DNA of 64,000 nucleotides from Eledone cirrhosa (Eukaryota), in assembly GCA_964016885.1 (NCBI GenBank), contig OZ024756.1:6510001-6574000 (forward strand). Direction: 5' to 3'. The notes under the pieces are model-generated. The model was given only the letters and a program-made list of their open reading frames with translations, ran no database searches and was not told the origin of the DNA. The stretch's first letter is position 1, and each line of letters opens with the position of its first letter. Both the position numbers and the translations under genes were made by a program. Positions 3,772 to 4,176 of the stretch are shown piece by piece.

Positions 3772-4176
3772 AAAACATGAGTAGAAAGAAGAATACTGCG
3801 TGGTTGCACATGGGTTACATATGATTAAAATAGTCCTTCGTCAGTGATTTTCCAACCATCATTGGTATTTCATCGCATTAAATATCAGATACCTCAGGTT
3901 GGTGCGAGCAATAACTAAAAAAAGTTATTGGGACCAGTAATTCGCGTAAAGCGAGGGGGACAAGTAAACAACATAGAAGGATAAAAGCAAACCGAAGATA
4001 GGAAAATAAACAAGCAATATGGTTGTTCGGTCAGCATAAGCTGGGTGGATTTCATGAGCGAGAGAGGTACAGACCGTCCGATGTGTGTGAGATGTAAGCA
4101 AGAAGAGACCCACTACAAGCCAAATTAGAGGAAGTGAGAAGGGGAGAAACAGAGAGTGAGTGAGTGGAAGAGGTCA
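3772..4176 (-). mobile_element. Non-autonomous element (family A) carrying the permuted hammerhead motif
   Basis: Reverse complement of about 31130-31545 over about 400 bp; bounded by (TA)n on both sides. Confidence 0.8.
3838..3902 (-). ncRNA. Permuted, K-turn-containing hammerhead-like motif (copy A)
   Basis: Minus strand reads ccaacc|tga|ggtat|c|tgatatt|taatgcgat|gaa|atacc|aat|ga|t|ggttgg|aaaatca|ctgacga. Confidence 0.7.

Follow-up and report, generated by a model that had tools for sequence, protein, structure and literature searches.

In the window (the whole 64-kb stretch of Eledone cirrhosa DNA that was analyzed), a K-turn on the minus strand at 3902-3852 extends stem III of a predicted hammerhead ribozyme of the type-SGC, or non-circularly permuted, kind. 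This K-turn is fairly likely to act as an architectural hinge: by turning stem III back, it would allow the permuted fold to close, mainly with the help of Mg2+ and tertiary contacts and with no requirement for a protein. An earlier note on this DNA had described the two K-turn strands and placed them in a putative stem III. The strands are borne out by the sequence and by RNAfold, and the location proved to be the extension of a type-SGC stem III with covarying helices. The non-circular permutation, which the entry in the earlier note does not mention, suggests an obvious structural role for the kink. Each of the three components (K-turns, SGC hammerheads, and retrozymes) has been described before, and their combination is new.

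The K-turn of copy A

The copy that carries this motif (copy A; 3772..4177, minus strand) is a 5'-truncated copy, about 0.4 kb long, of a ~527-bp non-coding monomer and lies in (TA)n. Its NC helix joins a 5' strand CCAACC (3902-3897) to a 3' strand GGUUGG (3857-3852), a pairing indicated by covariation and RNAalifold. The non-bulged strand provides U3896, G3895, and A3894 as U3n, G2n, and A1n (3894..3896), and the bulged strand (3858..3863) provides the loop AAU (L1-L3, 3863-3861), followed by G1b at 3860, A2b at 3859, and U3b at 3858. The C helix corresponds to hammerhead stem III, with a 5' strand GGUAU (3893-3889) that ends in U16.1 (3889) and a 3' strand AUACC (3868-3864) that starts at A15.1 (3868). 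RNAfold returned exactly the NC and C helices flanking an open 3x6 loop, with z values of -2.1 and -1.7 that are weak alone. A K-turn-hairpin descriptor gave four matches in the real 64-kb window, two of them family copies, and 0.87 matches per 64 kb in shuffled windows (30 shuffles). A single K-turn in the window would be at chance level, and the comparison of subfamilies indicates that the motif is real. Reads from three runs of one sample (kind unrecorded) contain family variants at 3858, 3877, 3883, and 3888, and no variant of 10% or more at the four G/A letters of the K-turn.

The predicted hammerhead fold around the K-turn

The conserved blocks on the minus strand follow each other 5' to 3' as AUC (3890-3888), GAAA (3871-3868), and CUGACGA (3844-3838), such that the core elements UH, GAAA, and CUGAnGA are all present in the order S-G-C. 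By analogy with other hammerheads, the predicted cleavage site lies 3' of C17 (3888) in the triplet AUC (3887..3888), and each of the 13 subfamilies compared below has C, A, or U at position 17. Stem I pairs the strand 3' of the cleavage site (3882..3887) with the strand before the CUGA core (3845..3850), which a single nucleotide (3851) separates from the NC helix. In copy A, this stem contains one private mismatch, at 3883, where nearly all reads differ. The U11.1 and GAAA core block occupies 3868..3872 (GAAA is invariant in all 13 subfamilies), and the CUGACGA core block with A10.1 occupies 3837..3844.

Neither stem II as a helix nor the I-II helix of the type was found. Stem II consists of a single 10.1-11.1 pair, present in 10 of 13 subfamily rows with three pair types. 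In metagenome copies even this pair is mostly absent, and both core-flanking strands pair with the 5' leader instead. Between stem I and GAAA (3873..3881) lie a UUAA linker (3881-3878) and a strand (3877-3873) that pairs with leader positions 3907-3903, replacing the ordinary stem II. The leader itself (3903..3936), predicted by RNAfold and by covariation across subfamilies as judged by eye, comprises a closing helix strand (3936-3931, paired with 3836-3831), a hairpin (3930-3909), and the strand 3907-3903, which is joined directly to the NC helix. All 13 subfamilies retain the catalytic letters and obey the UH rule, the single exception being a U4>C majority in one of them. The core of a subfamily seen in L232-L251 often reads CCGAYGA (U4>C), and its K-turn is still standard. 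With stem II a single pair or absent, the predicted cleavage is not assured.

The repeat family and its copies

Seven copies of the family are present in the window. Besides copy A, these are a copy of the same subfamily at 31409..31484 (plus strand); two back-to-back inverted copies at 25866..26031 (both strands) with the loop UAC and C:U at 3b:3n; a copy with a different NC helix at 27569..27644 (plus strand), with the loop UAU and U:U at 3b:3n; a copy of a degenerate-kink subfamily at 9684..9759 (minus strand), with U at 2n and A at 3n; and a 5'-truncated copy with the bulged strand only at 62374..62448 (minus strand). That a 3-nt bulge and GA are kept in all copies, as the earlier note had stated, holds for seven of seven. 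The loss of the partner G that it reported in two copies is found at 31.4 kb (G>C) and 9.7 kb (U), and the match of these copies to its letters B and E is uncertain. The former change is private, with G in 31 of 32 sampled copies of that subfamily; the latter is fixed in its subfamily (30 of 31 copies have U, and one has C). The inverted copies (25857-26040) are joined inside the ribozyme leader, and similar joints occur in the loci L111, L029, L039, and L096.

The ~527-bp unit has the ribozyme near its 3' end and is found in (TA)n as single or tandem copies and together with partial copies in inverted orientation. Several loci have ribozymes spaced by 527 bp, i.e., tandem non-coding units with a hammerhead in each, and no retroelement ORF was found inside the unit among the matches listed. 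In the 3.0-Gb genome, one branch of the family has at least 9,276 exact matches to a 30-letter pattern in which the kink letters were free, and a control pattern had 0. A core-only descriptor applied to 80 evenly spaced 10-kb stretches gave 11 matches, of which 10 (in six stretches) belong to this family; shuffled stretches gave 1, 0, and 1 matches. Very roughly, the copy number of the ribozyme family may be 2-4 x 10^4. A repeat search of the window was dominated by (TA)n. Fragments of a LINE-type RT element flank copy A at 1900-2750 (minus strand) and 4400-4990 (plus strand), separated by (TA)n.

Conservation and covariation among subfamilies

For comparison, 208 distinct copies, mostly from targeted searches, were sorted by their identity with most of the kink positions set aside, which gave 13 subfamilies; the three columns of the non-bulged strand took part in this sorting. 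With one row per subfamily (13 rows), 18 of 23 pairs change on both sides and 94.3% of the cells are paired, a level reached by 0 of 500 shuffles; slid controls pair in 30-44%. Changes on both sides were found in five of six NC helix pairs (94.9% of cells paired), in four of five C helix pairs (U16.1-A15.1 is invariant), and in all six pairs of stem I. Covariation extends to five helices in total, and the spacing of the elements is fixed. The two helices that flank the kink have compensatory changes in nine of their 11 pairs, and RNAalifold recovers both of them unaided.

A 3-nt bulge followed by G1b.A1n is the majority state in 13 of 13 subfamilies. On a tree of these subfamilies from which the kink columns were left out (node support is 41-95, in places weak, the rows being related), G1b, A1n, and A2b have 0 changes, like the catalytic letters; the stem columns have a mean of 2.2 changes, and only two of 42 are invariant. 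Position 2n changed twice, in separate clades and both times to U, and 3n changed five times. The A2b.G2n pair is present in copy A and 11 of 13 subfamilies, and the two subfamilies with U at 2n are non-standard and of the Kt-23 type, U being the commonest natural non-standard 2n state (PMC5061560, PMC2790904). The GA conservation that the earlier note expected in a larger alignment was thus recovered for G1b, A1n, and A2b, with G2n replaced by U in two subfamilies.

Among individual copies, G1b, A1n, and A2b are intact in 187 of 208, and both G.A pairs in 121 of 208, with 73 of the 87 misses coming from the two subfamilies with U at 2n. The non-bulged GA is intact in 97 of the first 100 of the 9,276 genome matches, and the bulged-strand GA in 93 of the first 100 of 1,512 matches. 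Within subfamilies, the G/A letters decay like their neighbors. G1b and A2b changed four and three times per 100, at least as often as loop positions, and the frequency of intact G.A pairs among young copies, which the earlier note had suggested as a check, does not work as a test of selection. Such decay is what dead inserts would show, and only subfamily-level states inform on selection. These states support selection on the K-turn sequence, and at the sequence level the invariance and covariation exclude a chance look-alike. Two amplified subfamilies deviate from the standard kink. In the degenerate-kink subfamily (F), G1b, A1n, and A2b are intact in 20 of 31 copies. In the other, which is young and abundant (97-99% identity; 1,277 first-look candidates), all 42 copies have U at 2n.

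The same fold in other elements

A fixed-spacing pattern with the stems left free gave 29 matches in metagenome contigs, which were read with 300-base flanks. Of these, 17 paired in all helices and 12 were dropped as unpaired chance matches; removal of three duplicates from the 17 left 14 distinct copies. The pattern fixed the GA letters, so these rows show architecture and not GA conservation or frequency. In an alignment of the 14 rows with seven genome rows, 95.5% of the cells are paired (score 0.84). Their stems are unrelated to those of the genome family, and several copies stand directly behind the end of an ORF. Among matches to the pattern in viral contigs, 0 of 77 pair up.

The protein at such ORF ends was searched against this genome and gave 138 matches, and most of the 25 loci fetched represent one family; these RT-coding loci were found by protein search alone, with the RNA motif unused. 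The protein has similarity to Pfam RVT_1 and zf-RVT (RT and zinc-knuckle) below the curated cut-offs and no PDB match. Judging from its motifs, we take the family to be HERO/NeSL-like, with a restriction-like endonuclease. The same ribozyme lies in its 3' UTR; here the closing helix is 12 bp long and the kink is non-standard (A.A at 2b:2n and U:G at 3b:3n), and this AGAA kink is present in 17 of the 18 loci parsed among the 25 fetched. An A.A variant at 2b:2n is reported to fold only inside a larger RNA (PMC5061560). A second, more decayed RT family has a standard GA/GA kink, as read by eye in L381. Kinked permuted hammerheads in the 3' UTRs of non-Penelope RT elements were observed in L358-L382 (about 1700-1900 in element orientation) and L252-L280, and in L264 the ORF reads on into the leader hairpin of the ribozyme.

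Two Penelope-like elements of the Naiad group, Naiad_Obim and Naiad_Ovul (Craig et al. 2021, PMC8557442), have this fold at their ends when the published excerpts are read by eye, including a U:U K-turn of the standard type and, in the leader, a hairpin that resembles the one in the window. Eight of the 10 Naiad ribozymes read in this way from these excerpts (three from Acropora, one from Euprymna, and four unnamed there) have no K-turn; in its place stand bulges of larger size, a simple bulge of 3 nt or of only 1 nt, or an additional hairpin. The 1-nt bulge belongs to one ribozyme in the supplement with a near-straight stem III of ~15 bp. In this genome, no coding Naiad joined to an SGC ribozyme was found; no Naiad RT motif was found in the fetched loci, and a Naiad-type motif search of the genome returned one non-coding copy. 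The abundant Penelope-like elements with a C-terminal endonuclease were considered as the autonomous partner and rejected, having ordinary minimal type I hammerheads at their ends. Such elements, with a C-terminal GIY-YIG-like region and a minimal type I hammerhead tail, were seen in L099, L143, L144, L147, L153, L159, and L219.

Folding class of the K-turn

The folding of K-turns can be sorted by the pairs at -1b:-1n, 3b:3n, and 4b:4n (PMC5061560, PMC5689011), which are C:G, U:U, and G:C in copy A. A duplex with this combination is described as having "very impaired ion-induced folding," and all such K-turns folded on L7Ae binding (PMC5689011); by this analogy, the K-turn of copy A is assigned to the poorly ion-folding class. 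By contrast, A:G (the Kt-7 state), U:G, and C:U at 3b:3n belong to a class that folds independently of protein (PMC5061560). Among the 13 subfamilies, 3b:3n is U:U in six, C:U in two, U:G in two, and A:G, A:A, and C/U:A in one each. At -1b:-1n, 12 of 13 subfamilies have C:G, and 13 of the 14 distinct metagenome copies have G at -1n; 4b:4n has at least five states in the family. U at L3 is shared by 11 of 13 subfamilies and 12 of the 14 distinct metagenome copies, the position having been free in the pattern. The nearest sister of the subfamily of copy A has A:G at 3b:3n and is about as abundant. In the first 100 of 1,512 matches, 3b is A in about two fifths, and in the first 100 of the 9,276 matches, 3n is G in 38 and A in 12. 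The metagenome copies have 11 of 14 in the self-folding class (3n=G or 3b=C, non-Watson-Crick), 3 of 14 Watson-Crick, and 0 of 14 U:U, a profile like that of SAM-I riboswitch K-turns (82%) and unlike those of U4 or box C/D (PMC5689011). Taken together, most family variants appear to fit the published rules for protein-free folding, and the variant of copy A does not.

Proposed role of the K-turn

The far end of the NC helix is 0 nt from the helix that replaces stem II and 1 nt from stem I. The far ends of stems I and II of a hammerhead are at the pole opposite stem III. By a rough triangle estimate, the gap to be spanned is about 64 A with a straight helix, 53 A with a plain bulge, and about 30 A with a 50-degree kink. 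Given these 0- and 1-nt joins and the wide gap that a straight helix would leave, the kink is best read as a hinge. The distance from the far end of stem III to stems I and II was named as an open problem for SGC hammerheads by Eckert et al. (PMC10085705), and a K-turn at stem III offers a concrete answer. The kink would bend the stem III extension back and close a cage of helices around the core, with folding driven mainly by Mg2+ and the surrounding tertiary contacts. Cleavage 3' of 3888 would then release ~527-nt monomers from tandem transcripts, and a Penelope-like (Naiad) reverse transcriptase may copy these monomers into (TA)n. The protein 15.5K/Snu13 could bind and stabilize some variants, that of copy A above all, without being required.

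The other bends found in other Naiads fit a hinge, as lysine riboswitches and RNase P also swap kinks (PMC5061560). Against a hinge stand the poorly ion-folding class of copy A, the occurrence of U:U in six of 13 subfamilies and both octopus Naiads, the prevalence of U at L3 although L3 makes no RNA contact in known K-turns, and the amplification of subfamily F with a degenerate kink. Moreover, given the one Naiad with a near-straight stem III, a sharp bend is not visibly required everywhere, and the active state may in some cases lack the outer helix.

A rival reading is a ribozyme gated by protein, in which the unkinked helix of the U:U subfamilies would hold the core open until 15.5K/Snu13 or another L7Ae-family protein binds and kinks it, so that the protein switches cleavage on or sets its timing. 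Host-protein control of this kind had been proposed in the earlier note. Copy A belongs to the class that folds poorly in ions and folds with L7Ae (PMC5689011), U:U with U at L3 recurs in six of 13 subfamilies with wholly different stems as well as in Naiad_Obim and Naiad_Ovul, L3 is mostly U in metagenome copies as well, and genomic copies span both sides of the predicted site, which would require any cleavage to be slow, reversible, or delayed. However, sister subfamilies with a self-folding 3b:3n were amplified alongside, the young abundant subfamily has uniformly lost G2n, which is a direct L7Ae contact (PMC5061560), and 4b:4n is variable. Tertiary contacts can also rescue poorly folding K-turns (PMC5061560), and this RNA has many. 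In vitro binding of L7Ae or 15.5K is expected for any standard K-turn and is not by itself proof of function (PMC5061560). A gate of this kind is rather unlikely. The folding class of copy A and the prevalence of U at L3 agree with the proposal; as a family trait it is not supported, given the amplified self-folding sisters, the lack of U:U in the metagenome copies, the two changes of 2n to U, and the K-turn-free majority of the Naiad ribozymes. Obligate control by L7Ae/15.5K is not supported family-wide, and the U:U subfamilies remain candidates on sequence grounds. It is also unlikely that 15.5K/Snu13, a host snoRNP and spliceosome protein, closes the permuted hammerhead and times the cutting of retroelement RNA, with lineages toggling between protein-gated and self-folding states by single changes at 3b:3n. 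If true, a gated module would be common to Penelope-like elements (Naiads), a retrotransposon of an unrelated kind with RT and endonuclease, and the non-coding elements that parasitize them.

Alternatively, the fold may be a structured 3' end recognized by the reverse transcriptase, or a non-cleaving, self-held structure, in which the K-turn shapes the signal and cleavage is absent or marginal. This would suit a fold that ends two unrelated kinds of retroelement and in which stem II is down to one pair or opened. Likewise, insert 5' ends are not enriched at the predicted site: among 227 in a sample biased to full copies, none breaks at that position, and one each breaks one base to either side. 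It is nonetheless quite improbable, in that the catalytic letters and the UH rule are retained throughout the subfamilies and in unrelated elements, and natural SGC hammerheads cleave in vitro (PMC10085705). A further alternative, that the motif directs snoRNP assembly as a module of the box C/D (or C'/D') snoRNA type or resembles a K-turn by chance, is scarcely credible. As the earlier note had pointed out, copy A does read like boxes C and D, with CUGA and AUGAUG, and K-turn-like hairpins occur about once per window by chance. The C-like box of copy A ends in G. This resemblance does not extend to the family, in which CUGA is read in about 45 of the first 100 of the 9,276 genome matches and 3b:3n and 4b:4n vary, such that the U:U/G:C signature is not conserved. 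No terminal box C was found upstream of the motif in copy A, and Rfam gave 0 matches at gathering score in five loci. In the whole window, each of the best 150 of 421 Rfam matches fell short of the gathering score and lay outside the K-turn; those listed were only miRNA matches driven by microsatellites. With a conserved RUGAUGA/CUGA followed by U:U and then G:C not found, identity as a box C/D snoRNA is largely refuted, and the chance reading is countered by the invariance and covariation described above.

Relation to known systems

Like the standard simple K-turns (PMC5061560, PMC5689011), the K-turn described here has a 3-nt bulge, G1b.A1n, A2b.G2n, C:G at -1, an NC helix, and a purine at L2. 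Unlike Kt-7, U4, box C/D, and SAM-I, it stands inside the predicted small self-cleaving ribozyme of a retroelement, its family spans the folding classes U:U, C:U, U:G, A:G, and A:A, and 2n is non-standard in places (U twice, and A in the RT-coding family). The kinks of RNase P and riboswitches likewise position helices and can be swapped for other bends, and archaeal RNase P binds L7Ae (PMC5061560); however, those are large or ligand-binding RNAs and not small nucleolytic ribozymes of mobile elements. With the type-SGC HRIMA-1 and its variants (PMC10085705), the family shares the S-G-C order, the core letters, and a short linker between stem I and the strand that precedes GAAA. The SGC hammerheads of Eckert et al. 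2023 come from metatranscriptomes only, whereas this family is in an animal genome, has stem II opened and paired by the 5' leader, lacks the I-II helix, and has a K-turn extending stem III. The main text of that paper contains none of the words "kink," "k-turn," and "L7Ae," and its supplement neither of the first two; its alignment files were checked by keyword only, and an unannotated K-turn could stand there. In a literature in which subscription journals were poorly covered, no report of a K-turn in a natural small self-cleaving ribozyme and no later report on SGC or Naiad hammerheads was found.

With Naiads, the window element shares (TA)n targeting, partial tandems, and inverted 5' copies, but the window element is non-coding. 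In that paper, Naiads are said to lack canonical hammerheads, and Naiad_Ovul is marked "HHR_half_core"; the permuted fold explains why standard descriptors call them hammerhead-less. Animal non-LTR retrozymes (bioRxiv 10.64898/2026.07.22.740005) are also tandem and non-coding with a hammerhead per unit, and were proposed there to be derivatives of PLEs. However, they are defined by type I hammerheads, and the S-G-C order found here would be missed by their descriptors. The module also stands at the 3' end of a second, unrelated kind of retrotransposon. The published folding rules place nearly identical subfamilies on opposite sides, a natural series for testing host-protein control, and the K-turn is a ready handle for crystallography, with L7Ae as a chaperone.

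Other hammerhead cores and repeats in the window

A separate repeat family with at least seven copies has long stems and a hammerhead core in the ordinary order (site, CUGAnGA, GAAA; type III-like). Its copies are at 49720-49850, 55990-56120, 61160-61300, and 62630-62760 on the plus strand and at 52360-52490, 52870-53000, and 26920-27050 on the minus strand. A long inverted repeat of a common short interspersed repeat at 49021-49194 accounts for one spurious miRNA match in Rfam. Minimal type I hammerhead cores of the Penelope-like pLTR type are present at 9273 (plus), 18487 (plus), 19015 (minus), 19619 (minus), and 26262 (minus).
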